64,000 nt of DNA from positions 43,639 to 107,638 of the forward strand of contig JAWLHY010000019.1 in the NCBI GenBank assembly GCA_041690135.1, written 5' to 3'. Source of the stretch: Armatimonadota bacterium. GTDB lineage: Bacteria > Armatimonadota > SYMT01. Within the stretch, counting starts at the first letter, position 1. Each line of letters starts with the position of its first letter. The position numbers were made by a program, and so were the translations under genes. The notes below the pieces were generated by a model. The model made no database searches. It was not told the origin of the DNA and saw only the letters and a program-made list of their open reading frames with translations. Below, one piece after another: positions 12,095-40,847 of this stretch.

Positions 12095-12115
12095 TCGTAA
12101 TGGCTGAATAGCGGC

Positions 12116-13945: not shown

Positions 13946-14045
13946 AGGCCCTCAACTTGACCTGTGTCAGAACACCGCAGGACTGCAGGCGATGATCTGA
14001 CACAGTTGCTTAGATACACATCACATGATGTAGCGAGATATTAAA

Positions 14046-14810: not shown

Positions 14811-14983
14811 GATCCTATCCGAATTGAAATCTTAAGTCAGTGAATGTCCGTTTGGTATGATTCCGGCACAGGAGGATTGTGTCAAAATGGGATTAGTTGC
14901 GCAGGATGATGGCTGGCCCGTGCCCGACGCGCTTTGGGAACTCATAGAGCCTTTGTTGCTGAAGGGGAAACCCCATCCTTGGG
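14811..14983 (+). pseudogene. 5' stub of an IS5-family element/transposase, truncated by the next IS
   Basis: AGGAGG RBS and ATG 14887 give MGLVAQDDGWPVPDALWELIEPLLLKGKPHPWG, the usual IS5-family N-terminus (D.LW..IEPLL); a putative end GATCCTATCCGAA at 14811-14823 overlaps a CTAG (14808-14811). Confidence 0.65.
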
Positions 14984-15069
14984 GGAGCGCGCGTCAGAAT
15001 TTCGCACGCTCGGATTTTGATCAGGCGCCAAGCCTCGGAATGTGATTCACGATGGGTGGGCTTTCACCG

Positions 15070-15432
15070 ATGGCAGACAAGAACTTCGATCCCGAGTGGG
15101 ACGGGATCTTCCGGGAGATCCGCGAAGAGATGGTGGCGTGGCGCCGGGCGCATCCCAAGGCGACCCTGCGCGAGATTGAACTGGAGAATGAGCGCGTGCT
15201 CGCGCGTCTTCACGCGCGAATGATCCAGGATATCGCGGCCGCCAGTGGGGTGGCCGAGTTTGCCGGACAGCCGGCCGCGGACCGGCCGCAGTGCCCGCAC
15301 TGCGCGGTGCCGCTGGTGTCCCGAGGCAAGAAGCGGCGGAACCTCCGTAGTTATGGCGACCAGCAAGTGGAGTTGGAAAGAGCCTATGGCACCTGCCCCC
15401 AGTGCGGGCAGGATTTTTTCCCCTCTGGATGA
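15070..15432 (+). CDS. IS transposase OrfA (zinc-ribbon N-terminal part)
   Basis: HPKATLREIE, CPHC...CPQC, ends FFPSG at the TTTTTTCCCCT run. Confidence 0.8.
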   Translation: MADKNFDPEWDGIFREIREEMVAWRRAHPKATLREIELENERVLARLHARMIQDIAAASGVAEFAGQPAADRPQCPHCAVPLVSRGKKRRNLRSYGDQQVELERAYGTCPQCGQDFFPSG

Positions 15433-16471: not shown

Positions 16472-16634
16472 CGCGCGCTCCTAGGAAAATCGCAGTATTG
16501 GACCGCAACCTTAGGGTGGTGGTACGATACAGTCAAGCCCTTCAAGCCCCCGGTGTTGGGTCGCATCACCGACTGGCGTGCTTCCAGTTCTAGCAATTCC
16601 GTTTTCCGTAGGCGCGGCAGTGGTCAACCATGTG

Positions 16635-18101
16635 ATGGAGAGTATTCGATGTCTTGTTGGTAGCCGCATCGTGGTTGCGATTTCCGGGGGCGTCGACTCC
16701 CTGGCCTTGCTGCACCTCATTGCGTCGATTGGTAGCTTTGATCCTTTGGAGTTCCTCGCGGTGCACGTCCACCACGGGATGCGGGCCGAGGCCGCAGATG
16801 CGGATGTCGAGTTCTTGCGCCAGACCTGCGATGCGTGGGGTGTGCCGCTCGAGGTTGTCTACCGCGACGTGCCGGCGCTGGCGGCGGAGCGGCGGATCTC
16901 GGTGGAGGAGGCAGGACGGATTGCCCGGTATGAAGCCCTGGAAGCCCTGGCTCGGGAGCGCGGCTGCAATAAGGTCGTTACGGCGCACCACGCCGACGAC
17001 CAGGTGGAGACGGTGCTGCTTCACCTGCTGCGGGGCACCGGTCTGGACGGTCTCCGGGGGATGCCGGAGCGACGTCCCCTCTCCCCCAAATCCGGCGCGC
17101 CGGAGCTGGTCCGGCCACTGCTTGGGGTATGGCGCCACGAGCTGGAAGCCTATTGCCGGGAGCACGGACTGGAACCTCGCCACGACTGGACGAACGACGA
17201 CCTCCGCTACCGGCGCAACCGCCTCCGGCAGGAAGTGATCCCCCTGCTGCAGTCCCTGGCGCCGGCGGTGAAGCAGCACCTTCTGCAACTCGCGCAGCAG
17301 GCTCGGGACGAGGTGGCGGTTCTGGAGCCTCTGGCGGCGGACCTGCTCCACCAGGCACGCCGTCCGGCGCCGGAACCGTGGCGGCGTGCGGGAGGCCCGC
17401 CGGAGTGGTTGGTGCTCGCACGAGCATTGCGACCGACGGCGCTCGATGCCGCGACCTTTGCACAGGCGCCGCGTGCCACTGCCCGACGCGCCCTTCGGCT
17501 TCTTTTTCGGGAGGTAGCCGGCCCACCGGCCGATGTCCCCTTCGAGGCGGTGGAAGCGGTGTTGTGTCTGGCGGGGGGTGTGGGTACGGCAGTCGATCTT
17601 CCCGGATGTGGAATCCGAGCCCGCCGAGTTAGTGGCACTCTTCTTCTGGAACGCCAACGCCCGCCGCAGCGGGACCTCCCGGAGAAAGTCTTGGTTGCTG
17701 GTCCCGGCGAATACACGGTTCCGGCAATGGGGCTCAAGCTCCGGTTCGCAGCGGGCGCCGCCCCCGCCGACCCGCGCCTGCCGCCCGAGGAAGCCTGCCT
17801 GGCAAGCGCCGCAGTCCGATGGCCCCTGCGGCTCCGCGCCCCAGAACGGGGAGATCGGTTCCAGCCGCTGGGGTCGCCGGGGTCGCGCCTGCTAAGCGAC
17901 GTGTTCGTGGATCGGAAGATCCCCGCCGAGGCCCGCGCTTCCTGGCCCGTGCTGGAGGATACGGAGGGGATTCTCTGGGTGTGCGGAATCGCCGTGGCCG
18001 AACGCGCCCGCGTCGCGTCGCCGGGGGATCCGTGCCTCCGCTTGCGGATCGAGCCGATTCATGCGTCCGGATCTACCCTTGGCAGGTCCCAGGTGTCCTG
18101 A
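16635..18101 (+). CDS. tilS: tRNA(Ile)-lysidine synthetase
   Basis: AISGGVDS PP-loop, HVHHGMR, RYEAL, TAHHADDQVET, RPLL, D.TN..RRNRLR, C-terminal GDRFQPLG domain. Start uncertain (16578-16635). Confidence 0.95.
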   Translation: MESIRCLVGSRIVVAISGGVDSLALLHLIASIGSFDPLEFLAVHVHHGMRAEAADADVEFLRQTCDAWGVPLEVVYRDVPALAAERRISVEEAGRIARYEALEALARERGCNKVVTAHHADDQVETVLLHLLRGTGLDGLRGMPERRPLSPKSGAPELVRPLLGVWRHELEAYCREHGLEPRHDWTNDDLRYRRNRLRQEVIPLLQSLAPAVKQHLLQLAQQARDEVAVLEPLAADLLHQARRPAPEPWRRAGGPPEWLVLARALRPTALDAATFAQAPRATARRALRLLFREVAGPPADVPFEAVEAVLCLAGGVGTAVDLPGCGIRARRVSGTLLLERQRPPQRDLPEKVLVAGPGEYTVPAMGLKLRFAAGAAPADPRLPPEEACLASAAVRWPLRLRAPERGDRFQPLGSPGSRLLSDVFVDRKIPAEARASWPVLEDTEGILWVCGIAVAERARVASPGDPCLRLRIEPIHASGSTLGRSQVS

Positions 18102-29473: not shown

Positions 29474-30484
29474 TCACGCGGAGGTTTCGGAAGGTTCGAA
29501 CTGGGGTTGGAGGAGGATCCGCCCTTCCGTAAAGGCGAGGTAAAGGAGACCCACAATGATCCAGAGCACGTCCCGGCAACGACGCAGAACGGCGAGAGCC
29601 AGGGCATGTGGAGCGGCGACCCCGAGGATGGGGGCGAGATAGACGTAGCCGCCTTCCTGGGTGCCCACGTTGGCGGGGATCAGGAAGGTCGCCATGTTGA
29701 CGCTGACGATCAGCGCCTCGAAAGCAAGTGCCTCCGAGACAGAAAGTGGAAAGCCGAGCACGTAGGCGCCCGCGAGCATTTCGAGAGCCCCTGCCGCCCA
29801 GCCGAGAAAGAAGAGGGCAAAGGACAGGAGCGATTCGCGGGGGTGGGCGTAGAAGTAGTCCGCGACCCGGCCCCACGTTTCCAGGACCCAGGCGCCGGGG
29901 GAGCGGCGTTTTGGCGCAACGGCTTCTTCGAGTCCGGTGGGGGGAGCAGTCCTACGGGTGCGACGGAGGCGAAGGTCGAGAATGGCCGTCACGATGATCG
30001 CCGCCAGGATCGCTCCCGGGAATGCCGCAAACCCGAGAAAGAAGCCCTCCCGGCCCGGCACTTCCCGGATCGCCAGCACGGCGCCGAGGAAGATGAAGCA
30101 GACCTGGCCGAGCGTCATCAGCGTCTTGGAGACCGCGACGGAGGCGAAGGCGTCTTTCACGTTCGCCCCATCCCTGGCCAGCAAGTAGATTTTGAGGGGC
30201 TCTCCGCCCATGGAAGCGAGCGGCGTCACCTTGTTCGCCGCCTCGCCGGCACGTTGGACCCAGAAAAGCCGGGAAAATGGCACCGGCGCGTGGTCTTCGC
30301 CGAAAACGGCCCGCCAGCCCCAGGTGTCGAGGAGGTAGATGACTGACGTCACCGTGAGGTAAAGAAGGAACCCCCACCCCACTTGAGATAAGGACTCCCG
30401 CACAGTGCCGGCATGTTGGCTGAATAGAAACGCCGTGAGGGCGAGACCGCCCACCAGCAGAATGAACCTAACGGCTTTCAGCAT
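29474..30484 (-). CDS. Flippase-like / lysylphosphatidylglycerol synthase TM domain protein (UPF0104/HpnL-like)
   Basis: Multi-TM; AGEAANKVTP.ASMGGEPLK, IPANVGTQEGG, RRCRD motifs. Confidence 0.85.
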   Translation of the reverse strand: MLKAVRFILLVGGLALTAFLFSQHAGTVRESLSQVGWGFLLYLTVTSVIYLLDTWGWRAVFGEDHAPVPFSRLFWVQRAGEAANKVTPLASMGGEPLKIYLLARDGANVKDAFASVAVSKTLMTLGQVCFIFLGAVLAIREVPGREGFFLGFAAFPGAILAAIIVTAILDLRLRRTRRTAPPTGLEEAVAPKRRSPGAWVLETWGRVADYFYAHPRESLLSFALFFLGWAAGALEMLAGAYVLGFPLSVSEALAFEALIVSVNMATFLIPANVGTQEGGYVYLAPILGVAAPHALALAVLRRCRDVLWIIVGLLYLAFTEGRILLQPQFEPSETSA

Positions 30485-31751
30485 TGGCGGTCCGGAACAT
30501 CGAGAGTTGGATGGCCGAGAAGACGATCCAGAAGACGTGTGAGCCGATCCCGGCCAGCCAGGCCAGCCATTCTAGACGGCCGATCAGCACCAGGGCCACC
30601 ACGATCACCGAGAAGTCCCGCGAGGTCGCTTCGTTGATGACTTTCTCCGTGAGCGTATCCCGGGGGGTGGACTTTACCTGGTCCTCGCTGGAAAGGCGAT
30701 TGGTGGCGGCCAGCGCGGACACCGATCCCGGTTGAAAGCGGCTTTGGAGCTTACCCAGGCCAAAAATGACCAGCACGCACATGACGACCCCGGTGGCGGC
30801 CAAAACACCCAGAGTGGTGGCCAGCGGCACTCCCAACTGCGTCGCAGCAGCCCGCGCGGCGGCCGCGAACACGGCCACCGTCACCACGTTATCCGCCCAG
30901 ACGTCGAGCCAGCTCCCGAATTTGCTGAACTGATACTTGAGCCGCGCGATCTCGCCGTCGGAACAATCGAGGGCGACCGAAAGCTGGAAGAGCACCGCGC
31001 CCACGACCGAGAGCGCATAATCACCCTGCCAGAACAGCCAGGCGGCGAGCATCCCCAGGGAGAAGTGAAGGCAGGTCACCTGGTTGGGGGTGATTGGCAA
31101 GTTAATGACCCGCCGAGTGAACCAGCGAGAAATGTGCCGGTTGAACACGCGGTCGATGTAACCGTCCGCCACACAGGCCAGGTCCAGGTACATTCGCCGA
31201 TCCGCGGCATCTACCGCTTCTTGGCTGTCGAGCCGGAGATAGGCCTCAGGAGAAGCGAGCAGTGGGGAGCTACTTCGAATGAGACGGCGCGCGGCGTCTT
31301 CCGGAGCACCTCCGGCGCCGAGCGCGACCTGCACTTCTCGACCGGGAACAACCGCCGGGCCGGCGCATGGATGGCCGGTAGCGTCGAGCGCCACGGCCCC
31401 CGCTGTCTGCCGCTGCGCTTCGAGAAGCCGTTTCAGAGCGTCTTTTGCCGCCATTACCTGGGGAGAGAGCAGCAGCACGCGGTCGTCATCATCGAAGCGA
31501 GGGAGGTCCTCGGGACGGCCAACGACGGTGAGCGGGACATGCAGTTCCTTCTCGCTCTGCGCCCAGTGCGCGGCGGCCTCCGGGCTCCCGGTCACCAGGG
31601 TTACGTGCTGGGCACCCAGGTGCCACGCCTGCAGGATGGCGCGCCGCACCAACGTGAGACCCGCGAGCCGGGTGTCCGGAGGGATAGGAGAGACCGCGCA
31701 CCCCTCTGGACGGAAGGGGGCATCCGTTTCGAAAACGATGGCTCGGATCAC
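30468..31751 (-). CDS. CDP-alcohol phosphatidyltransferase with a degenerate N-terminal NTP-transferase-like domain
   Basis: ITPNQVT; LDCSDGEIARLK...SKFGSWLDVWAD matches D-x2-DG-x2-AR-x8-G-x3-D-x3-D; GTG 31751 overlaps the upstream TGA. Confidence 0.9.
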   Translation of the reverse strand: MIRAIVFETDAPFRPEGCAVSPIPPDTRLAGLTLVRRAILQAWHLGAQHVTLVTGSPEAAAHWAQSEKELHVPLTVVGRPEDLPRFDDDDRVLLLSPQVMAAKDALKRLLEAQRQTAGAVALDATGHPCAGPAVVPGREVQVALGAGGAPEDAARRLIRSSSPLLASPEAYLRLDSQEAVDAADRRMYLDLACVADGYIDRVFNRHISRWFTRRVINLPITPNQVTCLHFSLGMLAAWLFWQGDYALSVVGAVLFQLSVALDCSDGEIARLKYQFSKFGSWLDVWADNVVTVAVFAAAARAAATQLGVPLATTLGVLAATGVVMCVLVIFGLGKLQSRFQPGSVSALAATNRLSSEDQVKSTPRDTLTEKVINEATSRDFSVIVVALVLIGRLEWLAWLAGIGSHVFWIVFSAIQLSMFRTANAESR

Positions 31752-32455
31752 AGTTCCTTCAGCAACTCTCGCGCTCGTTCCACGTCTTCGGGAAAGTCGA
31801 TCTCCAACCAGGGGAGGTCGTCCACCAGCTCGTAACCGATGTGGCACTCCCGCATCAACGCCGGATAGACCTCTTCGTGTTCGATGCCGTCCCGTCCCTG
31901 CTCCAATGTGCGGCCCAGGAGCTCACGCAGGGTGGAGGCCGCCTCGGCATTGAGTTTCAAGAAGCCGACCGATTCGCCGGTGGTATCGTAACCGGGCTGG
32001 GCGCCGCGGGCGATATCGAGTACCCGGCCGTCGCGTGCCATCAGCATCTGTGCTTCCCCGTCATCGGCCGCCCTCGTGTCCATCAGAAAGCAGTTGGGAT
32101 GCGGCGACCGGACCAGGCGCTCCAGCATTCGCACCGGAAACAACACATCGGCATCCATGATGAGAACGTCGGCATCCAGGGCCTCCCGCGCGCACCAGAG
32201 GGAGAGAATCGCCCCCTTCCGGTACTCCGGATTGTAGACGGTCTTTACTCCCGCTCGGCCCGCCACGGCCCGTTCGATCTGGTCTGCCAGGTGTCCGACC
32301 ACGATCGTGACGTCGTGTACGCCGACTTCATGGAGCGCGTCCAGCATGCGGTCGAGCAGGGAGCGTCCGTCCAGATCCAACAGGCACTTGGGATGTTCGA
32401 CGACGGCGCCGCTGAGTCGCCTGCCTCTCCCAGCGGCCAGGATAACGGCCTTCAT
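31748..32455 (-). CDS. LicC/PntC-like phosphocholine/phosphonate cytidylyltransferase
   Basis: MKAVILAAGRGRRL, PKCLL, YNPEY, MDADVL, GESVGF, WLEIDFPED. Confidence 0.88.
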   Translation of the reverse strand: MKAVILAAGRGRRLSGAVVEHPKCLLDLDGRSLLDRMLDALHEVGVHDVTIVVGHLADQIERAVAGRAGVKTVYNPEYRKGAILSLWCAREALDADVLIMDADVLFPVRMLERLVRSPHPNCFLMDTRAADDGEAQMLMARDGRVLDIARGAQPGYDTTGESVGFLKLNAEAASTLRELLGRTLEQGRDGIEHEEVYPALMRECHIGYELVDDLPWLEIDFPEDVERARELLKEL

Positions 32456-32456: not shown

Positions 32457-33419
32457 TTAGAAATCGTCCCACCGGCCTAATACGTCGCCCGGCTCCTGTC
32501 CCCGTTCGTTCAGGTAGGTGCGGTACTTCTGGAGAGTATCGTACACGTCGCAGGTGATCAGCAGATTACTTGACCGCCCGGGGGCCGCGGACCAGAGCCC
32601 ATCCGGGTTCCGGTTGGCCAGGAGCCACTGTACTCCCTGGGTGAACTTTTCTTCGTAACGGTGGTCGTTCATGACCAGACAGGCCAGGATCAGGGCGCGT
32701 GTCGAGTCGCAGGTATGGTCCACATCCCCACCGTCCCAGGATCCGTCCTGGTCCATCGCATTCGCCATCAGGTCGAGGCCCTTCCGGGCGGCCTCCGAGT
32801 CTCCCTGGTAGACCACGATCTTGGGGAGGATGTGGGCCGTCCAGGCAACCGGGGAAAGACGTTGCTCCTGCTTGAAGCGCGGGTCGTACCAACCGCCATC
32901 CTCTGCCTGCATGCCGCAAGCGAAAGCGATGCCGCGCTCCACTGCCGATCGCACCCGGTCGGACTCGATCCCGTCGTGGCCGGCCAGCATCAGGGCACCG
33001 AGAGAGATGCTCGTAGAGTCGCTGCGTCCCCACAGCACGTCCAGCCAGCCACCACCCGGCTCCTGCTGCGCCAGGAGATAGTTGACGGCCTTCTGTACCG
33101 CTGCGGTGATCGCCGGGTCCTGGAGTTGCCGGTTGAGCGTGACGAGATTGCGCGTGCAGAACGCGGCCTCGCGGATGCCGCTCTTCTCATCGTTCGAGAA
33201 CTCGCCCCAGCCGCCGTCCTCATGCTGGATCCGGACGAGCCGCTCGCAGGCGTCTCGGGCCATCTCCGCCGCCTTCTCCTGGGCAAGTACGCGCAACACG
33301 TGGTTCGTGGTGTCGAGTGACAGCCGGTCCGCCGCCAGGTCCCATTCCGGTCGCCGCTGCTCCAGGACGGCCAGTCCCTCATGCATAAGATCGTCGATCT
33401 GTCCCACCGTAATCGGCAC
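32457..33419 (-). CDS. Prenyltransferase/squalene-cyclase repeat (QW-motif alpha/alpha barrel) protein
   Basis: Five QW-like motifs: QHEDGGW, QEPGGGW, QAEDGGW, MDQDGSW, RNPDGLW. Confidence 0.82.
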   Translation of the reverse strand: MPITVGQIDDLMHEGLAVLEQRRPEWDLAADRLSLDTTNHVLRVLAQEKAAEMARDACERLVRIQHEDGGWGEFSNDEKSGIREAAFCTRNLVTLNRQLQDPAITAAVQKAVNYLLAQQEPGGGWLDVLWGRSDSTSISLGALMLAGHDGIESDRVRSAVERGIAFACGMQAEDGGWYDPRFKQEQRLSPVAWTAHILPKIVVYQGDSEAARKGLDLMANAMDQDGSWDGGDVDHTCDSTRALILACLVMNDHRYEEKFTQGVQWLLANRNPDGLWSAAPGRSSNLLITCDVYDTLQKYRTYLNERGQEPGDVLGRWDDF

Positions 33420-33422
33420 GGT

Positions 33423-34694
33423 CTAACTCCTTGTCGCGGGCTCGTCCCGCAGGTTCTTGCGTAACTCTTCGTGGATCGAACTGTTGGTGGCCAGCAGCGA
33501 TTGGCCGTTTTCCCGGAGTGGGTACCCCTCAAAGTCCGTGAGCCGGCCCCCGGCCTGCTCGAGCACGAGCGCACCCGCGGCAAAATCCCATTTGCGCGTG
33601 GTATTCCGAACGAAGGCGTCGATGCGCCCGCAGGCCGTGTAGCAGAGCAGGCTGGCCGTCGATCCCATCACCTTCACGCGCCCCTCGCATTCTCGGGCGA
33701 CGCGCTTGAAGATTGCCAGGCCCTCTTCAAGCCGCTGGTGGCGATCGAAATAGCAGTTGACCATCGCCTCGCGCACCGAAAGTACTTCCGACACGTGAAT
33801 TTCCTCGCCGTTGAGCGTGGCGGGTTCTCCCTTCGCGGCCGCGAACAGTTCATCCAGGACGGGCAAGTATACCACGCCGATGGCCGGCTCGCCTTCCACC
33901 CACAGGGCGATGGAAACGGCGAAATAGGGCAGCCCGCGGGAGAAGTTGGTCGTCCCGTCCAGGGGGTCCACGATCCACTGACGCGGGGAGTTGTGTCCCG
34001 ACTCCCCCGCCTCTTCAGACAGGATGTAGTCCTCGGGGTAGACCTCGCGCAGCCGTGAGAGGATCTCCGCTTCCGCGGCCGGATCCGCATCCGTCAGCAG
34101 CGACCGGTCGCTCTTCTCCCGGACACTGAAGGAAGAACCACGGTACTCCAACAGGATCTCCCCCGCCGCCCGCGCCGCGGCAATCGCCGTGTCCAGCTCC
34201 GCTGCGAACCTGGGAGCCACAGATTTCACAGATTGGGAAGGATTAGAAGGGGACGGGAGCGGTGGAGGGCCAGTGCGGCGGAGTTTGGGCGCTTCCCAGC
34301 CAGGATTGTGTTTGTACCGCTGTTGTTGCAATGAGGCGGTTCCGAAGTTGAGGAGCAGCCCGATTTCGCAACCTGTCGCTTTCAGGTAGTTCAGGATCTG
34401 GGCCTTCTCGGTGCCGGAGAGATGTTCCTGCGCCTTGAGCTCTACCAGGACGGTCCCGAAGCAGATCAGGTCGGCACGGTACTTCTTCTTCAGGCGCCGC
34501 CCCTTGTAGTGCAGTGCCAACGGCACTTCGTGCTGCACGGGAATACCTCGGCGCCGGAGTTCTATCAGGAGGGCTTCAAGATACACGGCTTCGAGAAATC
34601 CCGGTCCTAGCTGCCGATGCACCTCCATCGCAGCCCCGATGATGGCGTAAGTCCGTGGATCGTCCTTCTCCGAGTTGCTTTGCTGGGTTCTCAA
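33423..34694 (-). CDS. GxxExxY (PD-(D/E)XK-like) domain fused to an inositol monophosphatase family domain
   Basis: N: IIGAAMEVHRQLGPGFLEAVY, YRADLIC, VELKA, QILNYLK, GLLLNFG. C: SEEAG, WIVDPLDGTTNF, WDFAAG. No stop between them. Confidence 0.9.
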   Translation of the reverse strand: MRTQQSNSEKDDPRTYAIIGAAMEVHRQLGPGFLEAVYLEALLIELRRRGIPVQHEVPLALHYKGRRLKKKYRADLICFGTVLVELKAQEHLSGTEKAQILNYLKATGCEIGLLLNFGTASLQQQRYKHNPGWEAPKLRRTGPPPLPSPSNPSQSVKSVAPRFAAELDTAIAAARAAGEILLEYRGSSFSVREKSDRSLLTDADPAAEAEILSRLREVYPEDYILSEEAGESGHNSPRQWIVDPLDGTTNFSRGLPYFAVSIALWVEGEPAIGVVYLPVLDELFAAAKGEPATLNGEEIHVSEVLSVREAMVNCYFDRHQRLEEGLAIFKRVARECEGRVKVMGSTASLLCYTACGRIDAFVRNTTRKWDFAAGALVLEQAGGRLTDFEGYPLRENGQSLLATNSSIHEELRKNLRDEPATRS

Positions 34695-34737
34695 CTCCCT
34701 CTCCTTCCTTCCAAATCTGTGAAATCTGTGGCTCCCA
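34211..34737. mobile_element. GxxExxY cassette bounded by 32-bp inverted repeats
   Basis: 34211-34242 tgggagccacagatttcacagattgggaagga versus 34706-34737 tccttccaaatctgtgaaatctgtggctccca: 31/32 complementary, built from a CACAGATTT unit. Confidence 0.75.
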
Positions 34738-34744
34738 CCTACTC

Positions 34745-35800
34745 TCAGTCTTGTAGAAGAAGGTCTAAGGCGGTGGAGCGGATATGGGAGTAGCGGTTGG
34801 GGTGGAGGTAGGGCGCGGGGCTGCTGCCGTAGAGGCGGTAGAGCATGGTGAGGGCGGCGTAGCGGCGGAAGCGGAGGGACCAGCGGGTATCCAGGGCGGG
34901 GGCGGTTTCGCGGTAGCCGGCTTCGATGGCGGACGCGGCCGCCTGGGCGGAAGGACGGAGGTTCGGGTCGTTCTCTCCCATCAACAGGTAGTGGCCGGCC
35001 AGGAAGCCGGGATCGTAGGCAGGGTCGGAGACGGCAGCGCCCAACTCGAAATCGAGCAGGAATACCTCCCCCTCCGGTCCGACGCGCACGTTCTTCGGCG
35101 CCGCATCCAGGTGGGAGATCATCCCCTCCCGCTCCGCGGCGCGCGCCTCGTCATAGAGGGAATGGGTCACCTGTTCCGCATCGGCCGGAAGCTCGGCACG
35201 CTGGAGAACCCCGGTTGTCCGCATGCGCAAGAAGCGGAGCCAGTTGGCGTGGTCCTGTTCGCGGGTTGGCCAGAGTGTTTCTTCCCCCAGGCGCACGGTA
35301 TGCACGATGCCGAACAAGCCGGCCAGACGGTAGGCCGCCTGGGGATCGCACTGGTTCTTCTGGAGTGCCGATTGGAGGGAGGTGGTGCGTTCCCCGATCC
35401 GCAGCGTCCAGAGGATGTTGTTCCGTTCGTCATAATGGACGACCTGGGGAACCTTATGACGCACGGGCTCCGGCAGGGCGGTACGGAGCGTCCGAAGTGC
35501 CCGGGCCTCGACCTGGATCCGGGCTGGGGACACATCGGAGAGGTCCTTGCCCAGGCGCTCATGTTCTTTGACCCGCGAGAGCGCTTGTTTGAGAAACACG
35601 GATCCGGCAGGTACGTCTACCCGATAGACGTAGTTCATGACGCCCACGTCGAGATAGGTGATTTCAGCCTCGTCCCACTCTCTCGGTAGTCCCGAATGGA
35701 TTGCAACCCTTGTCTCGCGCAAATAGTTGCGGACTGCCTCCGGTCCCTCCGCCAGCGAGTGAACGGGAACCCAGTCTGGACGGTCTATCCCGGCGTGCAT
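34745..35800 (-). CDS. APH/choline kinase-fold phosphotransferase (methylthioribose-kinase-like)
   Basis: GVMNYVYRV, FLKQAL, HLDAAPKNV, LLDFE, DPAYD. Confidence 0.82.
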   Translation of the reverse strand: MHAGIDRPDWVPVHSLAEGPEAVRNYLRETRVAIHSGLPREWDEAEITYLDVGVMNYVYRVDVPAGSVFLKQALSRVKEHERLGKDLSDVSPARIQVEARALRTLRTALPEPVRHKVPQVVHYDERNNILWTLRIGERTTSLQSALQKNQCDPQAAYRLAGLFGIVHTVRLGEETLWPTREQDHANWLRFLRMRTTGVLQRAELPADAEQVTHSLYDEARAAEREGMISHLDAAPKNVRVGPEGEVFLLDFELGAAVSDPAYDPGFLAGHYLLMGENDPNLRPSAQAAASAIEAGYRETAPALDTRWSLRFRRYAALTMLYRLYGSSPAPYLHPNRYSHIRSTALDLLLQD

Positions 35801-35813
35801 CGTGGGGTCCGCC

Positions 35814-36959
35814 TCAGGCGATCATCTGCAGAACTTCGCGCAGGCCTGCAGCATCCAGGTCCCGGAGGTTGTGGCCGGCACGGTCCGGCGTGTAGCCGTC
35901 GCGCACGCACAACTCGATGCCCTCGGCATCGATACCCAGCTCCGACAGGGACGTTTTTAGCCCGACGCGCTGCAGGAGAACCTGGATCCGCCGGGCGCCG
36001 CTATCGATGCTGTTGCCGCCCGTGGCTCGAGCCAGGGCGGTCATCCTCTCCAGCGAGGCTTCCGCGTTGAAGCGCAACAGTGCCGGCAGGGTAATGCTAC
36101 TCGCCTGTCCGTGGACCACGCCGAAATGCAGGGTCATCGGGTAGGATAGCGAGTGCGCGGCGGCCGTTTTCGTGTTGCTGAATGCGAGGCCGGCGAGCAG
36201 CTGGGCGAAAAGCATCCGGTTGCGATGCCCCAGGTTGTCCGGATGGTTCACCGCGAGCGGGAGCGCCTCGAAGATGCGCCGCACCGCTTCCAGAGCGTAG
36301 GTGTCCGAAATCGGGTTGGCGTTCTTATTCCAGTAGGCTTCCATCGCGTGCGAAAGCGCGTCCATGCCCGTGGTGGCGGTGAAGGCCGTCGGAAGCGTTA
36401 ATGTGAGGCGAGCATCGAGCACGGCATGGGTCGGGTACATTCCCATGCCCTCCATCGAGAACTTCTTCTTCGTTTCCAGGTTCCAGAGGGTGGCCCAGCG
36501 GGTAACCTCACTGCCGGTCCCGGCGGTGGTGGGCACCATCACGGTGGGGAGACTGGGGGTCGAGGTGGAACGCTGCTTATCCAGGATCGGCAGCACTTCC
36601 CCGCCGTTGGGCAGGGTGGCGGCAACCACCTTGGCGGTATCGAGTGCGCTGCCGCCGCCGATCCCCAGGATGATCTCAGCACCATGCTCGCGCGCGAAAT
36701 CCACCGCTTCCTGTGCCTGCGTCACCTCCGGGTTGGGCCGGACCCCGTCGTAAACGGAAAGCTCGCGGTCACCCACCAGGCTCGCGACCTGATCCCGGAT
36801 CCCCAACTCCTGCAAGATGGCCCCGTCGGTGACGAGGGTAACCCGCCGCCCCGGAAGCTCGGCGAGGATTTCCGGAAGCTTCTCCAGGCTGCCGGGACCA
36901 AAGGTGACCTTGACGGGATTCCAGAAACGCGTGGCGAGGTTTTCAGGAGAGATGCTCAT
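35814..36959 (-). CDS. Fe-containing alcohol dehydrogenase, probable phosphonoacetaldehyde reductase
   Basis: GGGSALDTAK, PTTAGTGSEVTRWATLW, DALSHAMEAYW, AFSNTKTAAAHSLSYPMT, HG; phosphonate context. Confidence 0.85.
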   Translation of the reverse strand: MSISPENLATRFWNPVKVTFGPGSLEKLPEILAELPGRRVTLVTDGAILQELGIRDQVASLVGDRELSVYDGVRPNPEVTQAQEAVDFAREHGAEIILGIGGGSALDTAKVVAATLPNGGEVLPILDKQRSTSTPSLPTVMVPTTAGTGSEVTRWATLWNLETKKKFSMEGMGMYPTHAVLDARLTLTLPTAFTATTGMDALSHAMEAYWNKNANPISDTYALEAVRRIFEALPLAVNHPDNLGHRNRMLFAQLLAGLAFSNTKTAAAHSLSYPMTLHFGVVHGQASSITLPALLRFNAEASLERMTALARATGGNSIDSGARRIQVLLQRVGLKTSLSELGIDAEGIELCVRDGYTPDRAGHNLRDLDAAGLREVLQMIA

Positions 36960-38059
36960 GACTTGATTTCCAGGAACGACTCGCGGACGGCGTTCACGAC
37001 GCCGCGGAGGTCATCGGCGGTGAGGGTCCCCAGGTTGGCGATGCGAAACGCCCAGGTTTTGAGGTCCCCCTGGCCGGCATAGATCACGTAGCCGCGCTCT
37101 TTCATGGCATCGTGCAGCGCGTCGTACGACACACCTTCCGGAAGTGGGAAGGTCGTGAGGGTGTTGGACCGCCACTCGGGGGCCACGATCGGCTCCAGTC
37201 CCAGTTCGGCCATTCCCTCGCGGAGCGCCTGGGCCGCCTCCCGGTAGCGGTGGAACCGGTTCTCCAGCCCCTCCTCGTGGGTTTCGAGGATTGCCTGGCG
37301 CAGGGCGAAGAAGACCTGGATCGCCGGGGTGAAAGGCGTGTTATCGGCCTCTTCCGCTTTCCACTGGTTATACAGGTTGAGGTAGACCGACCGGGCCGGA
37401 AGGGAAGCCAACCCCTCCAGGGCTGTACGCCGCGCAACCACGAACGAAAGCCCGGCCATGCCCTGAAGACACTTGTTGGAACTCGAGATCAGGTAGTCGA
37501 TCCCCAGCTCCTTCACATCAAGTGGCTCCCCCGCGAATGAGCTCATCGCATCCACGATTAACGACCGTCCGTGTTTGCGGCAAACGGCCGCGAGCGCTTC
37601 CACGGGATTGAGGAGCCCGGTGGTGGTCTCGTGATGCACCACGGCCAGGTGGCTGAGCGAGGGGTCCTCGGTAAAGGCTCGATCCACATCTTCCGGCCGG
37701 GGCGCTTCCGTCCAGTGGTAGTGGAGCACGTGGTGCTCGATGCCGTGGGCCGCGGCCATCTGGCGGATGCGGTCGCCATAGACGCCGTTGTCGATGACCA
37801 GCAGCTTGCGGTCCCGCGGGACGACGGAGCAGACCGTGGCCTCCACGGCCGCCGTTCCGGAACCGGAGAAGACGACGGTGGACCACTCGTTGCCTCCGCC
37901 GGCCAGACCGGCGATTTCGTCGCGCACCCACCGCATCACGGCAAAGAACTCCGGCTCCCGGTGACAAAGATCCGGCGTGACCATCGCGTTCCGCACCGTG
38001 GGGGTGGTGCAGGCGGGACCGGGGTTCAGGAGGATGTACTCCTTTAACGGCTCACTCAA
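36956..38059 (-). CDS. 2-aminoethylphosphonate aminotransferase (PhnW/AepZ family, class V PLP)
   Basis: LLNPGP, GSGTAAVEA, NGVYGDR, HHETTTGLLNP, DAMSSF, SSNKCLQG, FTPA.Q, IYAGQG. Confidence 0.9.
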   Translation of the reverse strand: MSEPLKEYILLNPGPACTTPTVRNAMVTPDLCHREPEFFAVMRWVRDEIAGLAGGGNEWSTVVFSGSGTAAVEATVCSVVPRDRKLLVIDNGVYGDRIRQMAAAHGIEHHVLHYHWTEAPRPEDVDRAFTEDPSLSHLAVVHHETTTGLLNPVEALAAVCRKHGRSLIVDAMSSFAGEPLDVKELGIDYLISSSNKCLQGMAGLSFVVARRTALEGLASLPARSVYLNLYNQWKAEEADNTPFTPAIQVFFALRQAILETHEEGLENRFHRYREAAQALREGMAELGLEPIVAPEWRSNTLTTFPLPEGVSYDALHDAMKERGYVIYAGQGDLKTWAFRIANLGTLTADDLRGVVNAVRESFLEIKS

Positions 38060-38634
38060 GGTCGGTCTCCGGTAGCGTGAACGGCGGCGGAGAAACGGTC
38101 GCGGATCTCTTCGGGGGTATGCGTGACGCGCCCGGCCTTGAACGGCCCCGTCTCAACCTCAACCTCCGCCAGGATGAAGGTCGGCCCTTCGGTCTCCAGG
38201 CATTCGCGGTATGCGGCGGCCGTCTCTTCCGGCGTCCGGGTGCGCACCGCCCGGGTGTAGCCGGCCGCCTCCGCGATCTTCTCCAGGGCTATGGACTGGC
38301 TCACCGCCGGCTGGTTGCCGGTGCTGGCGTAGACCCCGTTATCGAAGACGATGTGGATCAGGTTCTTCGGCCGGGTGGAGGCGATCATTGCCGTGGAGCC
38401 GAGGTTCATCAGCAGGTTGCCGTCGCCGTCGTAGATCACCACGCGGCGGTCGGGGCGAGAGAGCGCGACCCCCAGGCCGATCGACGAGGCGAGGCCCATC
38501 GAACCAATCATATAGAAGTTGCCGGGCCGGTCGTCCACGGTGAACGAGCGCCGGGAGATGTGCCCGTTGGCGTGGACTACGACCGCATCCCCCAGCAGCG
38601 GCTGCAACGCGCGGATGGCTTCTTCCAGAGTCAT
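38056..38634 (-). CDS. Phosphonopyruvate decarboxylase, beta (ThDP-binding) subunit
   Basis: NFYMIGSMGLASSIGLG, DGDGNLLMNLG, DNGVYASTGNQ; ATG 38634 overlaps the alpha-subunit stop (ATGA). Confidence 0.88.
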   Translation of the reverse strand: MTLEEAIRALQPLLGDAVVVHANGHISRRSFTVDDRPGNFYMIGSMGLASSIGLGVALSRPDRRVVIYDGDGNLLMNLGSTAMIASTRPKNLIHIVFDNGVYASTGNQPAVSQSIALEKIAEAAGYTRAVRTRTPEETAAAYRECLETEGPTFILAEVEVETGPFKAGRVTHTPEEIRDRFSAAVHATGDRP

Positions 38635-39152
38635 TTCGTCACCCCCGCACGCAGCAGCAGCGCCGCGGGAAGACTGTTCTCCCGCTGGTATTCCGTCGCC
38701 CACCGGAGGTCGTCCAGCAGGGTCTCCGGTTCCGGTGTCCGGAAAGGAACTCCAATCGTGTCGAGGAGCTTTCCGGAGATTTCCCCCATGATGATGTGCT
38801 CCGGGGCATCCTTCCCGAGATAGCCTCGCCATGTGATGAGCAGGAGGCACGGGGTCTTGTACATCAGGGTCATCGAAGTGAGGGCGTTGACGCAGACGCC
38901 GAGTCCGGAGTTCTGCATGACGACGACGGGACGACGTCCCGCCATCATCGCCCCGCAGGCCAGTCCCACGGCGGCATCCTCGCGGGTTTCCGCGTAGTAG
39001 TGCACCTCCGGGTCGCGCTCGAGCTCAGCAATGAGACCACTGACGAGGGAGCAGGGTACTCCGGTGAAAAAGTCGTACCCTTGCTCCTTCAGCGCCGCCG
39101 CGAACGCGGTGGGCGAAACGGGGTCGGTTTCGAAGACGGATCCACTTGCCAC
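38631..39152 (-). CDS. Phosphonopyruvate decarboxylase, alpha subunit
   Basis: FFTGVPCS, TREDAAVG, MQNSGLG, ITWRG..GKDAPEH..MG. Confidence 0.88.
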   Translation of the reverse strand: MASGSVFETDPVSPTAFAAALKEQGYDFFTGVPCSLVSGLIAELERDPEVHYYAETREDAAVGLACGAMMAGRRPVVVMQNSGLGVCVNALTSMTLMYKTPCLLLITWRGYLGKDAPEHIIMGEISGKLLDTIGVPFRTPEPETLLDDLRWATEYQRENSLPAALLLRAGVTK

Positions 39153-39161: not shown

Positions 39162-40847
39162 CTACTTCTGCTCCGCCCAGGCGCGCCGGTAATCTTCGAA
39201 GGTATCGATCTCGGCCCAGCCCTTGTAGATGTCGACGGCTTGCACGGCATGGCCGCGGTCGATCAGTTCCTGGAGCATATCCGTCAGCTTGGCGGCCCGC
39301 AGCCGGGGCGCTTCCTGGAAGGGAGCTTCCGGATCTCCGGCGCAAGCTTCGGCATAGGCTTCCCGCAGTGCGGCACAGCCCTCCGGCGAGAGCATCATCA
39401 TGCCGATGAACTCCCCGTCGCATTGCTCGCGCGGCAGGTCGTGGCCGATGCGAAGTACACGGTTCCCCTCCTCGCTGGGCAGATAACGATAGCCCACACT
39501 GGGAGGCCGCTCCGTTGCCACCAGGTCTTCGTACGGCCGCTGCCGGCCGTTGCCACTCGCCCGGTGCTCCATCCAGGCGCGGTCCACCACCACGTTGACA
39601 TCACCTTCCGCCTTCAGGAGCTTTTCCAGGATGCCCTGGTCGAAGAGCACGTCCGAGTAAAGGACGACCACCCGGCCCTTGAGCTCCGGCTCGGCACGGA
39701 AGAGGGAATAGAGCTCGCTGGTCTGCTCGTACTCGTCGTTGTCGTAGTAGCGGGGCGTCGTTAGGGTGAAGGCTTCCTTCTTGTAGCCGCGCACCACCAC
39801 GACGTCCTTGATGTTGCAGGCGTTGAGAAGATCGATCTGGCGCTCCAGGATCGACTTACCCTTGATGTCGAGCATCGCCTTGGGGCGCTCTTCGATCAGC
39901 GGGAGTAGTTCGGGCTCGAAACCGGCTGCCACGATCACGGCCGTCACCTTGCCGCCGTCCGCGGGCAAGAACTGCTTCTCCTGGTGGTTCATCTCCTCCA
40001 CGCCGACCAGCCGGTAGACTTCCTCCAGTGGTACCAGCGAGGGCTCCACGTCCGCGATCCGGCGGGTGCGGTGGAGCTCGCCGAGGGTTTGCTGCATCGC
40101 TTTGATCGCGGCGCGCAGGCCGTGGTTGGCGAAGATCACGATCTTGAAGCCGGCCGCGTGGCAATCATCCGCGCTGGCTGTGGGGAAGATCGTCGGCACC
40201 ACCACCAGCGGCGTGTCCCGGTTCCACTGCTGGGCCGCGTGGGCCAACTCGTCGAGGGTCTTCGACTTGGAATGGATCAGGACGGCATCCGCGCCGGCAT
40301 CCGCGTACGCGTGGGCGCGCTTGAGTGCCTCTGCTTCCCCCCACCCCGCAATCAGCGCCTCGGTGCGGGCGATGATAAACGTATCGGGGTCACGCTGGGC
40401 GGCCTTGGCGGCGCGGATCTTGCCCGCGTGTTCCTCCGGAGAAACCAGTTCCCGCCGGGAGCCCGAGTAGAAGCTGCAGCGCTTGGGGAAGATGTTGTCC
40501 TCTAGACAGATCCCCGCGATCCCGGCATCTTCGTATTCCCGGATGGTGCGGACTACGTTCACCGCGTTTCCGAACCCGCTGTCGCAGTCCGCGATGACCG
40601 GGATGTCGATCGCGTGTGCGATCCCTCGGGCTACTTCCAGGTTTTCGGAGAAGGTGAGGATGTTGGCGTCGGGAACGCCCTGGGATGCGGAGATTTCAAA
40701 CCCGCTGGCCCAGACGGCATCGAAACCCGCCTCTTCCACGAGACGCGCACTGAGGGGATTGTGGGCGCCCGCCACGAGGAGCGGCCCGGACCTTCCCAGG
40801 GCCAGTCGCAGCTTGCGTGCGGGTGAATCAGTGGATCGACCAGTCAT
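39162..40847 (-). CDS. pepM: Phosphoenolpyruvate mutase fused to a C-terminal cytidylyltransferase domain
   Basis: GAHNPLSA, WASGF.ISA..GVPD, DCDSGFGN, EDNIFPKRCS, ARTEALIAGWG, LIHSK, IFANH; C-half PKAMLDIKGKSIL, RGYKKE, W.EIDTFEDY. Confidence 0.88.
   Translation of the reverse strand: MTGRSTDSPARKLRLALGRSGPLLVAGAHNPLSARLVEEAGFDAVWASGFEISASQGVPDANILTFSENLEVARGIAHAIDIPVIADCDSGFGNAVNVVRTIREYEDAGIAGICLEDNIFPKRCSFYSGSRRELVSPEEHAGKIRAAKAAQRDPDTFIIARTEALIAGWGEAEALKRAHAYADAGADAVLIHSKSKTLDELAHAAQQWNRDTPLVVVPTIFPTASADDCHAAGFKIVIFANHGLRAAIKAMQQTLGELHRTRRIADVEPSLVPLEEVYRLVGVEEMNHQEKQFLPADGGKVTAVIVAAGFEPELLPLIEERPKAMLDIKGKSILERQIDLLNACNIKDVVVVRGYKKEAFTLTTPRYYDNDEYEQTSELYSLFRAEPELKGRVVVLYSDVLFDQGILEKLLKAEGDVNVVVDRAWMEHRASGNGRQRPYEDLVATERPPSVGYRYLPSEEGNRVLRIGHDLPREQCDGEFIGMMMLSPEGCAALREAYAEACAGDPEAPFQEAPRLRAAKLTDMLQELIDRGHAVQAVDIYKGWAEIDTFEDYRRAWAEQK

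Follow-up and report, generated by a model that had tools for sequence, protein, structure and literature searches.

The N-terminal domain of P0001, a 561-residue fusion protein encoded in a putative phosphonate operon, is probably a working PEP mutase (we put the probability at about 75%) with a cysteine at the position of the textbook asparagine in its lid. This activity is predicted from homology, fold, catalytic residues, operon context, the status of the gene as the only one of its type in the genome and conservation across a group of relatives. Since cysteine replaces the textbook asparagine, the motif filter used in genome surveys would discard P0001 and many of its relatives.

The cysteine lid of P0001

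Positions are those of the window, i.e., the whole stretch of 64,000 nucleotides that was analyzed (Table 1). The original prediction had described a non-canonical loop, EDNxxxxxCS, at 40465 to 40505, and reading of the open reading frame places the lid LEDNIFPKRCSFY within that interval (40505..40467), with GICLEDNIFPKRCSFYSGS as the surrounding translation and the Cys124 codon, TGC, at 40478..40476. HMMER aligned this lid, free of gaps, with the lids of 5UNC (iEDKRFPKVNSF), 1M1B (LEDKLFPKTNSL) and 2DUA (mEDKTFPKDTSL). In the numbering of the mussel PEP mutase, which equals the P0001 residue number minus 2 and was verified on the lid printed in a review (PMC7916636), the changes are K116N, T121R and N122C. 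The motif EDKX5NS, which comprises Lys116 and Asn122, does not describe the P0001 lid, EDNIFPKRCS, in which these two positions are N and C. The lid is indeed intermediate, as had been proposed, since it contains PKRC, as found in lyases, including the host's own methylisocitrate lyase (EDQENPKRCGHL), together with ED..FPK..S, as found in PEP mutases. All of the best 120 database relatives (120/120), down to 60% identity, have N116, R121 and C122 (N118, R123 and C124 of P0001). Judged from this comparison, the cysteine lid is neither a chance change nor one private to P0001.

Table 1. Features of the P0001 locus in the window.
Feature	Coordinates	Strand	Evidence
P0001, 561-aa fusion protein with PEP-mutase-type and nucleotidyltransferase domains	39162..40847	-	ORF, ATG start, translation
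PEP-mutase-type domain of P0001, residues 1-296	39960..40847	-	PDB phmmer, AlphaFold model, Foldseek
Lid (gating loop) of P0001, residues 115-127 (L115-Y127)	40467..40505	-	ORF reading and alignment to structures
C-terminal MobA-like nucleotidyltransferase domain of P0001	39162..39959	-	PF12804, loop reading
Thiamine-diphosphate decarboxylase alpha subunit (split Ppd type)	38631..39152	-	PF02776
Decarboxylase beta subunit	38056..38634	-	PF02775; start overlaps alpha stop (ATGA)
2-Aminoethylphosphonate aminotransferase (AEPT)	36956..38059	-	TIGR03301 407.3 bits, above cut-off 360.8
Iron-containing alcohol dehydrogenase, nearest phosphonate-cluster type	35814..36959	-	PF00465/PF25137
Kinase-like protein, no Pfam match	34745..35800	-	weak TIGR01767 match, 5.5e-07
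PD-(D/E)XK_3 (GxxExxY) domain in frame with inositol-monophosphatase-family domain	33423..34694	-	PF13366, PF00459, TIGR04256
Squalene-cyclase/prenyltransferase-like alpha-alpha toroid protein	32457..33419	-	PF13243, PF13249
Second, free-standing nucleotidyltransferase, canonical AAGRGRRL loop	31748..32455	-	PF12804 2.5e-19
CDP-alcohol phosphatidyltransferase-family membrane protein	30468..31847	-	PF01066; NF041135 partial match
LPG_synthase_TM / HpnL-like flippase-like membrane protein	29474..30484	-	PF03706; TIGR03476 170.7 bits, below cut-off

Family assignment, fold and catalytic residues

Pfam matched PF13714 to residues 19 to 258 of P0001 (5.8e-62) and PF12804 to residues 321 to 421 (3.6e-09), and the PF13714 score of 209.8 bits (cut-off, 31.5) places the protein in the isocitrate lyase/PEP mutase superfamily. 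In a phmmer search of the PDB with P0001, 5UNC (1.4e-88), 2DUA (3.9e-76) and 1M1B (3.4e-72) ranked ahead of the lyases (1e-36 or worse). The TIGR02317 score, 188 bits for a cut-off of 354, does not class P0001 among the methylisocitrate/isocitrate-type lyases. The PEP-mutase equivalog TIGR02320 gave 280.5 bits, below its curated cut-off of 319.55, and TIGR02321, for phosphonopyruvate hydrolase, gave 279.7 bits, below its cut-off of 374.4; with that score, and with Cys instead of the Thr-type EDK..DTS in its lid, P0001 is not assigned to the hydrolases either. An AlphaFold model of the PEP-mutase-type domain, built from an 88-sequence alignment (pLDDT 96.6), replaced a single-sequence prediction that was unusable (pLDDT 42.8). 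Its best Foldseek match was 5UNC (TM 0.95/0.97; rmsd 1.0 A); superposition on Mg-oxalate-bound 1PYM gave an rmsd of 1.4 A, and TM values ranged from 0.91 to 0.97 for PEP mutases and the hydrolase versus 0.86 to 0.89 for lyases. The P0001 domain belongs to the PEP mutase/phosphonopyruvate hydrolase branch and not to the lyases.

Residues W44, S46, D58, D85, D87, E114, K120, S123, R159 and H190, whose catalytic roles in PEP mutase are described in the review (PMC7916636), are kept in P0001 and in 120/120 nearest relatives. They include the Mg-binding residues Asp58, Asp85, Asp87 and Glu114 (D60, D87, D89 and E116 of P0001), the phosphoryl-binding residues Arg159 and His190 (R161 and H192) and the lid residues Lys120 and Ser123 (K122 and S125). 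Comparison of 46 cysteine-lid with 26 canonical sequences revealed only three positions that distinguish the classes at a level of at least 85%, namely, L48F, K116N and N122C. At W44, S46, S123, E161, H190, P216, T217, A238, N239 and R243, the cysteine-lid proteins agree with PEP mutases and differ from lyases.

Alteration of two residues of the diagnostic motif could suggest that the mutase-type domain is inactive and serves the fused nucleotidyltransferase only as a scaffold. We regard this as very improbable, because the metal-binding, phosphoryl-binding and new lid residues are invariant in 120/120 relatives down to 60% identity, and because the PEP-mutase-type domain is unfused in some cysteine-lid proteins. 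Moreover, the site that looks degenerate is not that of the mutase but the loop of the fused nucleotidyltransferase, which reads AAGFEPELL rather than GxGxR and varies within the group (PF12804, 37.4 bits; cut-off, 27). An intact GxGxR-type nucleotide loop is a hallmark of PntC-type phosphonate cytidylyltransferase.

The scaffold could also serve another reaction on PEP, phosphonopyruvate or a look-alike, such as phosphonopyruvate hydrolysis or a C-C bond reaction on an oxaloacetate-like substrate, with the cysteine acting as a general acid/base, as in the lyases. PKRC is the lyase pattern, the P0001 cysteine falls exactly in the column of the lyase catalytic cysteine, the mutase and hydrolase models tie on P0001 with both scores below cut-off, and, according to PMC7916636, most authors attribute the switch from transfer to hydrolysis in the hydrolase to a single replacement at this position, N122 to T. 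We nevertheless consider such a reaction unlikely. The cysteine-lid proteins retain His190 and Ser123, at which positions lyases carry Glu/Asp and Gly, and the lyase residue set is therefore incomplete. A hydrolase or a lyase would also be out of place at the head of a biosynthetic operon in which the enzymes that follow require phosphonopyruvate and phosphonoacetaldehyde, and no alternative source of phosphonopyruvate was found in 10/10 genomes examined.

Operon and genome context

The P0001 gene heads a block of 11 genes on the minus strand, with ATGA-type overlaps. That the gene heads a phosphonate operon was borne out by the genes downstream, which encode a split Ppd, a 2-aminoethylphosphonate transaminase scoring above the TIGR03301 cut-off, a second nucleotidyltransferase and a CDP-alcohol transferase. 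The decarboxylase subunits score equally well on sulfopyruvate decarboxylase and Ppd models, below all cut-offs (alpha, 126.7 bits for TIGR03845 and 123.2 bits for TIGR03297; beta, 178.3 bits for TIGR03846 and 175 bits for TIGR03297). The best NCBIfam model for the alcohol dehydrogenase, TIGR03405, gave 332.4 bits, below its cut-off of 423.7. A scan of the locus for promoters and terminators yielded nothing useful.

P0001 is the sole PEP-mutase-type gene of the host genome (9.1 Mb; 97% complete), in which PF13714 otherwise matched just two proteins, a PanB-like one and a methylisocitrate lyase that scores 377 bits, above cut-off, on TIGR02317. The nine other cysteine-lid genomes that were searched for an EDK..NS protein all lacked one (9/9). 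The case that would have told against the original prediction, a canonical pepM supplying the pathway, was found neither in the host nor in these nine genomes.

Scoring of ppd neighbors, which had been suggested as a check, revealed a Ppd homologue in the fetched flanks of 28 of the 46 cysteine-lid loci, along with an AEPT homologue at 23 and a fused nucleotidyltransferase at 43; the corresponding figure for Ppd at canonical loci was 30/33. Where no Ppd was adjacent, the cysteine-lid genomes contained a Ppd homologue elsewhere (3/3 tested), and the two distal loci fetched from these three genomes both placed it in a PpdA-PpdB-AEPT-nucleotidyltransferase operon. Among 401 Planctomycetota genomes, 39 carry a PEP-mutase-type gene, exactly one each; Ppd consists of two subunits in 23/25 of those with a cysteine lid and of a single chain in 12/14 of those with a canonical enzyme.

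Operons without a mutase gene

The argument from context is not watertight, given the existence of similar operons that lack a mutase gene. Fourteen Planctomycetota genomes have a Ppd homologue and no PEP-mutase-type match, and a PEP-mutase-type gene was absent from all 10 of those that were checked (10/10). Three of these mutase-less genomes hold, inside large contigs, an orthologous PpdA-PpdB-AEPT-nucleotidyltransferase-CDP-alcohol-transferase operon with no PF13714 gene, the products of which are 51 to 54% (PpdB) and 41 to 43% (AEPT) identical to those of the host locus. In all three, an unrelated 288-residue protein precedes the operon. Searches with this protein yielded no match in Pfam or NCBIfam and no credible one among PDB sequences; an atlas search pointed weakly to zinc-dependent phospholipase C, and we therefore do not propose the protein as a substitute for the mutase.

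These operons, together with the equal fit of the split decarboxylase to Ppd and sulfopyruvate decarboxylase models, could indicate that the pathway does not make phosphonates. The decarboxylase and the transaminase would then act on an analogue, for which sulfopyruvate and 3-phosphohydroxypyruvate are suggestions, and the mutase-like domain would have another or a regulatory role. This seems to us quite improbable, since the transaminase beside P0001 scores above the curated AEP-aminotransferase cut-off, most loci have the mutase-type gene beside the module or fused with it, as with canonical PEP mutases, and all catalytic residues are strictly conserved. The mutase-less genomes, moreover, are metagenome bins of unknown completeness. 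In at least one of the bins checked (G786), a single-chain Ppd above cut-off occurs without a mutase match, which points to missing contigs.

Distribution and phylogeny of the cysteine lid

The cysteine lid is present in 25/39 PEP-mutase-type genes of the 401 Planctomycetota genomes, in 6/46 in Myxococcota and in 7/7 in Armatimonadota. It also occurs in Nitrospirota, Binatia, Acidobacteriota and some archaea, and cultured carriers include Sorangium cellulosum So ce56 and Minicystis rosea. The lid marks a large, old group. The strict motif fits 92 of the best 150 cluster representatives worldwide; counts from the DNA-pattern scan are lower bounds (at least 120).

Relatives with an asparagine lid, EDN.FPKRNS.Y, also exist, and Cys and Asn therefore alternate within one lid context. 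EDN..NS proteins were common among the matches listed in the pattern scan, which rules out a strict coupling of K116N with N122C. The reverse combination, K116 with C122, was never seen, 0/12 of the pattern matches being homologues. Because K116 varies in asparagine-lid relatives too, the problem with the motif is wider than the cysteine lid.

A first tree, in which the root provided by one lyase fell inside the cysteine-lid sequences, was not trusted because the outgroup branch amounted to 5.5 changes per site. In a second tree, with eight lyases, the canonical enzymes formed one clade (SH-aLRT 97) within a cysteine-lid grade; an AU test on this tree did not reject monophyly of the cysteine-lid sequences (p-AU 0.81), and the constrained tree had the higher likelihood. 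Addition of asparagine-lid EDN..NS sequences in a third tree collapsed the backbone, with 41/90 branches open, and we therefore make no claim on the ancestral lid. As to phylogeny within the ICL/PEPM superfamily, which had been proposed as a check, the second and third trees both split the lyases from all PEP-mutase-type sequences, cysteine-lid ones included, with an SH-aLRT of 100.

The cysteine lid may be the older state, which is compatible with the trees. A bolder reading, which we find doubtful, treats the cysteine-lid enzymes as a mechanistically distinct kind of C-P bond-forming mutase that links C-C lyases to canonical PEP mutase in evolution. In this view, F48, the amide at 116 and Cys122 would be three lyase-like states retained on a PEP-mutase phosphoryl-binding site. 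The thiol, activated by Arg121, would participate directly in catalysis instead of simply replacing the asparagine, and might accept the phosphoryl group transiently, relay protons or serve as a redox switch.

Proposed pathway and consequences for surveys

If P0001 is the PEP mutase that we predict, its domain would form phosphonopyruvate from PEP through the Mg-dependent phosphoryl shift that is usual for such enzymes. The two-subunit thiamine-dependent decarboxylase would pull the unfavorable equilibrium forward, making phosphonoacetaldehyde, which the transaminase would turn into 2-aminoethylphosphonate for activation with CTP and transfer to a membrane acceptor. The closing lid would use Cys124, with Asn118 and Arg123, in place of the canonical Asn122 and Lys116. 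PMC7916636 names Asn122 as one of the residues that probably hold the phosphoryl group during its migration, a contact that the thiol would take over from the asparagine.

Motif-based mining would drop the cysteine-lid group, as anticipated. EDKX5NS is required by the inventories of Rice et al. 2019 (PMC6697681), who refer to Yu et al. 2013 as the source of the motif and removed 22 fused proteins without it, and of Li and Horsman 2022 (PMC8942020); a 2025 actinomycete survey also requires it. A preprint by Acker et al. allows up to two motif mismatches when the gene is beside Ppd. We found no published description of the cysteine lid in the openly accessible literature searched.

If the cysteine-lid proteins are active, the inventories that require EDKX5NS overlook a substantial share of the phosphonate producers among several phyla of soil and fresh water, and Asn122, treated as a signature catalytic residue, would be replaceable by cysteine. 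The group would then give enzymology a natural experiment on the way in which the phosphoryl group is held during migration, and the cultured myxobacterial carriers named above make the question directly testable.

Comparison with known systems

Canonical PEP mutase (5UNC and 1PYM/1M1B; EC 5.4.2.9; TIGR02320) has the same fold as the P0001 domain (TM 0.93 to 0.97), which is 52% identical to the Streptomyces platensis enzyme (5UNC) and 42% identical to that of Mytilus edulis (1PYM). The Mg- and phosphoryl-binding residues and the partners Ppd and AEPT are common to both, whereas K116, T/V/L121, N122 and L48 of the canonical enzyme are N, R, C and F in the cysteine-lid group. Phosphonopyruvate hydrolase (PalA from Variovorax; 2DUA/2HJP) belongs to the same branch as P0001 (TM 0.92/0.96 for 2DUA), and both depart from PEP mutase at position 122; the hydrolase lid is of the EDK..DTS type, whereas P0001 has a cysteine lid and is encoded in a biosynthetic operon. 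Lyases (PrpB 1MUM and 1XG3 C123S), which are ~30% identical to the P0001 domain, share with it the PKRC lid element, with the cysteine in the same column, and F at position 48, seen in the P0001 group, is common among them. They differ in having EDQ, CGH and Glu/Asp at the position of His190, whereas P0001 has EDN, KRC followed by SF, and His190. In gene organization, the closest likeness is to the Ppm-nucleotidyltransferase fusions of the 'Burkholderiales_CDP-OH' neighborhood, described in PMC6697681 and PMC8942020, which have the same PF13714-PF12804 fusion and, as at the P0001 locus, a second, free nucleotidyltransferase, Ppd, AEPT and phospholipid-type genes. Relative to that type, the P0001 operon adds an Fe-dependent alcohol dehydrogenase and kinase-like, inositol-monophosphatase-family and squalene-cyclase-like proteins.

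Identification of a probable PEP mutase domain with a cysteine lid

The original prediction assigned a non-canonical EDN..CS catalytic loop (canonical motif, EDKX5NS) to a PEP mutase-type gene of the window; this loop corresponds to the lid that gates the active site. Translation and gap-free alignment of the lid region with solved structures (HMMER) confirmed this assignment. The encoded protein combines a PEP_mutase domain (residues 19 to 258; Pfam, 5.8e-62) with a MobA-like nucleotidyltransferase domain (Pfam, residues 321 to 421). The lid columns match EDKRFPKVNSF of PEP mutase 5UNC, EDKLFPKTNSL of the mussel PEP mutase, and EDKTFPKDTSL of phosphonopyruvate hydrolase, the substitutions being K116N, T121R, and N122C in mussel numbering (two less than the window residue number, in agreement with the lid quoted in the accessible part of PMC7916636).

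Features of the window and of related loci (positions in loci with L numbers are within the fetched locus)
Feature	Positions	Strand	Remarks
PEP mutase-nucleotidyltransferase fusion gene	39162..40847	minus	561 aa; ORF translation
Lid LEDNIFPKRCSFY, residues 115-127	40505..40467	minus	Translation
Cys124 codon TGC	40478..40476	minus	Read from DNA
Fused nucleotidyltransferase domain	39162-39959		Loop AAGFEPELL
Thiamine-diphosphate decarboxylase, two subunits	downstream	minus	Alpha and beta score alike on Ppd and sulfopyruvate decarboxylase models, all below cut-off
Aminotransferase	downstream	minus	Passes AEP aminotransferase equivalog TIGR03301 (407 versus 360.8)
Fe-alcohol dehydrogenase	downstream	minus	Closest to phosphonate-cluster type
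Kinase-like protein	downstream	minus	No family
PD-(D/E)XK_3/inositol-monophosphatase-family protein	33423-34694	minus	One ORF; PD-(D/E)XK_3 (GxxExxY) domain upstream of and in frame with the inositol-monophosphatase-family domain
Squalene-cyclase-like protein	downstream	minus
Second nucleotidyltransferase (NT2)	31748-32455	minus	Loop AAGRGRRL
CDP-alcohol transferase	downstream	minus
HpnL-like membrane protein	downstream	minus
Tailoring set	32457-36959		Fe-alcohol dehydrogenase, kinase-like, and squalene-cyclase-like proteins; unusual for an AEP-type cluster
L031, Nitrospirota	11690-16045		Cysteine-lid gene apart from Ppd operon
L018, Nitrospirota	6999-11123		As L031
L282, Sorangium cellulosum So ce56	9925-14300		Cysteine-lid fusion, PpdA, PpdB, second nucleotidyltransferase
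L283, Minicystis rosea	2923-10677		As L282
L238, Armatimonadota	3076-9026		Unfused divergent protein, EDNTFPKRCSLY
L239, Armatimonadota	8821-15070		Unfused divergent protein, EDNPSSKRCSLY
L473, EDN..NS context	8237-10529
L474, EDN..NS context	8774-11220
L475, EDN..NS context	3348-17991
L291, mutase-less operon	7226-14387		Genome G686
L292, mutase-less operon	6887-14486		Genome G701
L293, mutase-less operon	1214-9825		Genome G759

The closest solved relatives of the domain were PEP mutase 5UNC (1.4e-88), phosphonopyruvate hydrolase (3.9e-76), and the mussel PEP mutase (3.4e-72), the best lyase match in this search reaching only 1e-36. A structure model built with an 88-sequence alignment (pLDDT of 96.6, versus 42.8 for the single-sequence version) superimposed on 5UNC with an rmsd of 1.0 Å (TM, 0.95/0.97), on Mg-oxalate-bound 1PYM at 1.4 Å, and on hydrolase 2DUA at 1.5 Å; TM values for methylisocitrate lyases were 0.86 to 0.89. 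The protein scored 280.5 bits on the NCBIfam PEP mutase equivalog (cut-off, 319.55) and 279.7 bits on the hydrolase equivalog (cut-off, 374.4). Equal scores on the mutase and hydrolase models, both below threshold, and a cysteine at the lyase position count against a simple reading.

Ten active-site residues are kept in the window protein (W44, S46, D58, D85, D87, E114, K120, S123, R159, and H190; mussel numbering) and are invariant in its 120 nearest database relatives. In the accessible part of PMC7916636, D58, D85, D87, and E114 are Mg ligands and helpers, R159 and H190 bind the phosphoryl group, and K120 and S123 belong to the lid. N118, R123, C124, F126, and Y127 (window numbering) are likewise invariant in these relatives, one of which departs from the lid pattern, solely at the proline. 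Comparison of 46 cysteine-lid, 26 canonical, and 8 lyase sequences revealed that only three columns separate the first two groups at ≥85% (L48F, K116N, and N122C), and that the cysteine-lid state at each is lyase or lyase-like (F; N versus Q; C). Residues W44, S46, S123, E161, H190, P216, T217, A238, N239, and R243 are common to cysteine-lid proteins and PEP mutases and are not those of lyases. Together, these results indicate that the phosphoryl-binding site is of the PEP mutase type and that the lid is in part lyase-like. The cysteine-lid variant is predicted to be an active PEP mutase, with a probability of about 0.75.

The fused nucleotidyltransferase domain lacks the usual glycine/arginine loop, the corresponding segment being AAGFEPELL and variable among relatives; the free-standing NT2 has AAGRGRRL. 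The fused domain may be degenerate as a catalyst or may act on a different substrate.

Distribution and phylogeny of the lid classes

All of the best 120 of 2,559 database matches carry the N..C lid, and nearly all of these 120 are fused proteins of ~555 residues. The 80 related loci retrieved from species genomes comprised 46 EDN..C, 33 EDK..NS, and 1 EDK..TS lids. The DNA pattern EDNxFPKxC[S/T] gave at least 120 matches, with 74 true homologues among 80 loci fetched, spanning Planctomycetota, Nitrospirota, Binatia, Acidobacteriota, Rokubacteria, Actinomycetota, archaea, and Myxococcota, the last including cultured Sorangium and Minicystis. Sampling of 401 genomes per phylum (TIGR02320 search) detected PEP mutase-type genes in 7 Armatimonadota (no canonical and 7 cysteine lids, 3 fused like the window protein and 4 unfused and divergent), 39 Planctomycetota (one gene each; 14 canonical and 25 cysteine lids, 24 EDN..C and 1 EDS..C), and 46 Myxococcota (40 canonical, of which 32 were lid-verified and 8 called by above-cut-off score alone, and 6 cysteine lids), shares that are not global estimates because the phyla were picked for having matches. 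When 1.84 billion cluster representatives were searched exhaustively and the best 150 matches classed by residue 116 and residues 122-123, the lid was K..NS (the strict motif) in 92, N..CS in 21, S..CS in 2, N..NS in 14, of other types (1 to 3 each) in 17, and not recognizable in 4. Three of these 150 (P0225, P0226, and P0240; 43 to 44% identity to the window mutase domain) display mixed lids, EDQVVPKRCGLY, EDQELPKRCALY, and EDQVFPKRCGQF, and may be further lyase-mutase intermediates.

Proteins with EDN.FPK.NS lids (Asn116 plus Asn122) form a second class failing the strict motif: the DNA pattern EDNxFPKxN[S/T] gave at least 120 matches in species genomes, and 71 of 80 fetched loci (L353 to L432) contained true homologues with that lid. 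Thus, K116 is not universal even alongside Asn122. The combination of K116 with Cys122 was not found, none of 12 pattern matches being homologous. The EDN..NS gene adjoins a D-2-hydroxyacid dehydrogenase gene in Nocardioides and Chloroflexia genomes and lies inside an NRPS cluster in Chryseobacterium pennae; Ppd (phosphonopyruvate decarboxylase) was present in 1 of 5 EDN..NS genomes.

All PEP mutase-type sequences split from the lyases (SH-aLRT, 100). In the tree without the EDN..NS class, the canonical sequences and the single hydrolase-like sequence formed one clade (97), the cysteine-lid sequences being the remainder; monophyly of the latter was not rejected by the AU test (p = 0.81), and the tree constrained to it was the more likely one. 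Addition of 27 EDN..NS sequences left the backbone without resolution, the best tree requiring several changes of lid class. The claim is therefore restricted to the cysteine lid being old, strongly clustered, and widespread, with no order of states.

Genomic context and pairing with Ppd

Ten further genes follow the mutase gene on the same strand, their ends overlapping or almost abutting. The Fe-alcohol dehydrogenase gene adjoins the transaminase gene, which would offer two fates for phosphonoacetaldehyde. The squalene-cyclase-like gene directly follows the mutase gene in 7 of 46 related loci.

Scoring of ppd genes beside cysteine-lid homologues, as suggested in the original prediction, revealed a Ppd homologue in the fetched flank at 28 of 46 loci, together with an aminotransferase homologue of the 2-aminoethylphosphonate (AEP) type at 23 and a fused nucleotidyltransferase at 43; the 18 loci without Ppd include several with almost no flank. 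All three tested genomes whose long flank had none contained a Ppd beta homologue elsewhere (44 to 52% identical), located within a PpdA-PpdB-AEP aminotransferase-nucleotidyltransferase operon in both genomes inspected. Among the sampled Planctomycetota, Ppd was present in 36 of 39 genomes with a PEP mutase-type gene. It was of the two-subunit form in all 23 Ppd-bearing cysteine-lid genomes (of 25, the other two carrying divergent unfused forms) and single-chain in 12 of 14 canonical genomes, a pairing that is a description rather than a test of co-evolution because related genomes share such traits. The two pairings resemble alternative two-gene modules, each with its own line of inheritance.

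Other arrangements were observed. In two Nitrospirota genomes in which the cysteine-lid gene lies apart from the Ppd operon, the next gene is on the opposite strand and encodes a PLP-dependent decarboxylase; genes for a DUF6445 protein and a POT-family transporter come after it, and both genomes conserve this arrangement. In S. cellulosum and M. rosea, no AEP transaminase gene occurs within 10 kb, so the product may not be AEP. The unfused Armatimonadota proteins of L238 and L239 (39 to 44% identical) belong to a conserved set comprising the mutase-like gene, a class I/II aminotransferase, a 420-aa protein of unknown function, a gamma-glutamyltranspeptidase, and an MFS_3 transporter; this set contains no Ppd and may represent a phosphonoalanine-type route.

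A PF13714 search of the window genome (9.1 Mb, 97% complete) detected no second PEP mutase: the three matches were the window gene, a weak PanB-like match, and a methylisocitrate lyase (lid EDQENPKRCGHL; TIGR02317, 377 bits, above cut-off) adjoining a citrate-synthase-like gene. EDK..NS proteins were also absent from all nine other cysteine-lid genomes examined (two Nitrospirales, a Binatia, a Planctomycetota, a "delta proteobacterium," S. cellulosum So ce56, M. rosea, a Nitrosocosmicus bin, and an uncultured archaeon), whose remaining PF13714 matches were EDQ..CGH lyases or loop-less family members.

Conversely, 14 of 50 Ppd-positive Planctomycetota genomes (5 with single-chain and 9 with split Ppd) had no PEP mutase-type match, and 10 of these, upon checking, contained lyases only or nothing. 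Genomes G686, G701, and G759 carry an orthologous PpdA-PpdB-AEP aminotransferase-nucleotidyltransferase-CDP-alcohol transferase operon inside large contigs, with no PF13714 gene at all. Upstream of the operon lies the gene for a conserved 288-aa protein (P0121 to P0123; N-terminus WGTH) that matches no Pfam or NCBIfam family, a weak lead pointing to zinc-dependent phospholipase C; downstream lies a molybdopterin oxidoreductase gene. Either all three bins lack the contig with the mutase gene, or a PEP mutase is dispensable for the operon. Missing contigs are a plausible cause, since the bins are of unknown completeness and the same gap occurs in at least one checked bin with single-chain Ppd above cut-off (G786). 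Even so, these operons weaken the argument that a neighboring Ppd proves a mutase.

Comparison with published surveys

In the accessible parts of Rice et al. 2019 (PMC6697681), Li and Horsman 2022 (PMC8942020), and a 2025 actinomycete survey, the filter is EDKX5NS; Rice et al. dropped 22 fused PF13714 proteins for want of the motif. The terms "motif" and "EDK" do not occur in the main text of Lockwood et al. 2022. As given in the accessible part of the preprint by Acker et al., up to two motif residues may be missing if the gene lies ≤5 kb from a Ppd passing the TIGR03297 trusted cut-off; at 123 and 175 bits versus 312.5, the split Ppd subunits of the window fall short of it. The cysteine lid was not described in the literature searched (subscription papers and supplements being outside its scope). 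The window protein belongs to a real, conserved, and large PEP mutase variant with a cysteine lid, which is new relative to that literature.
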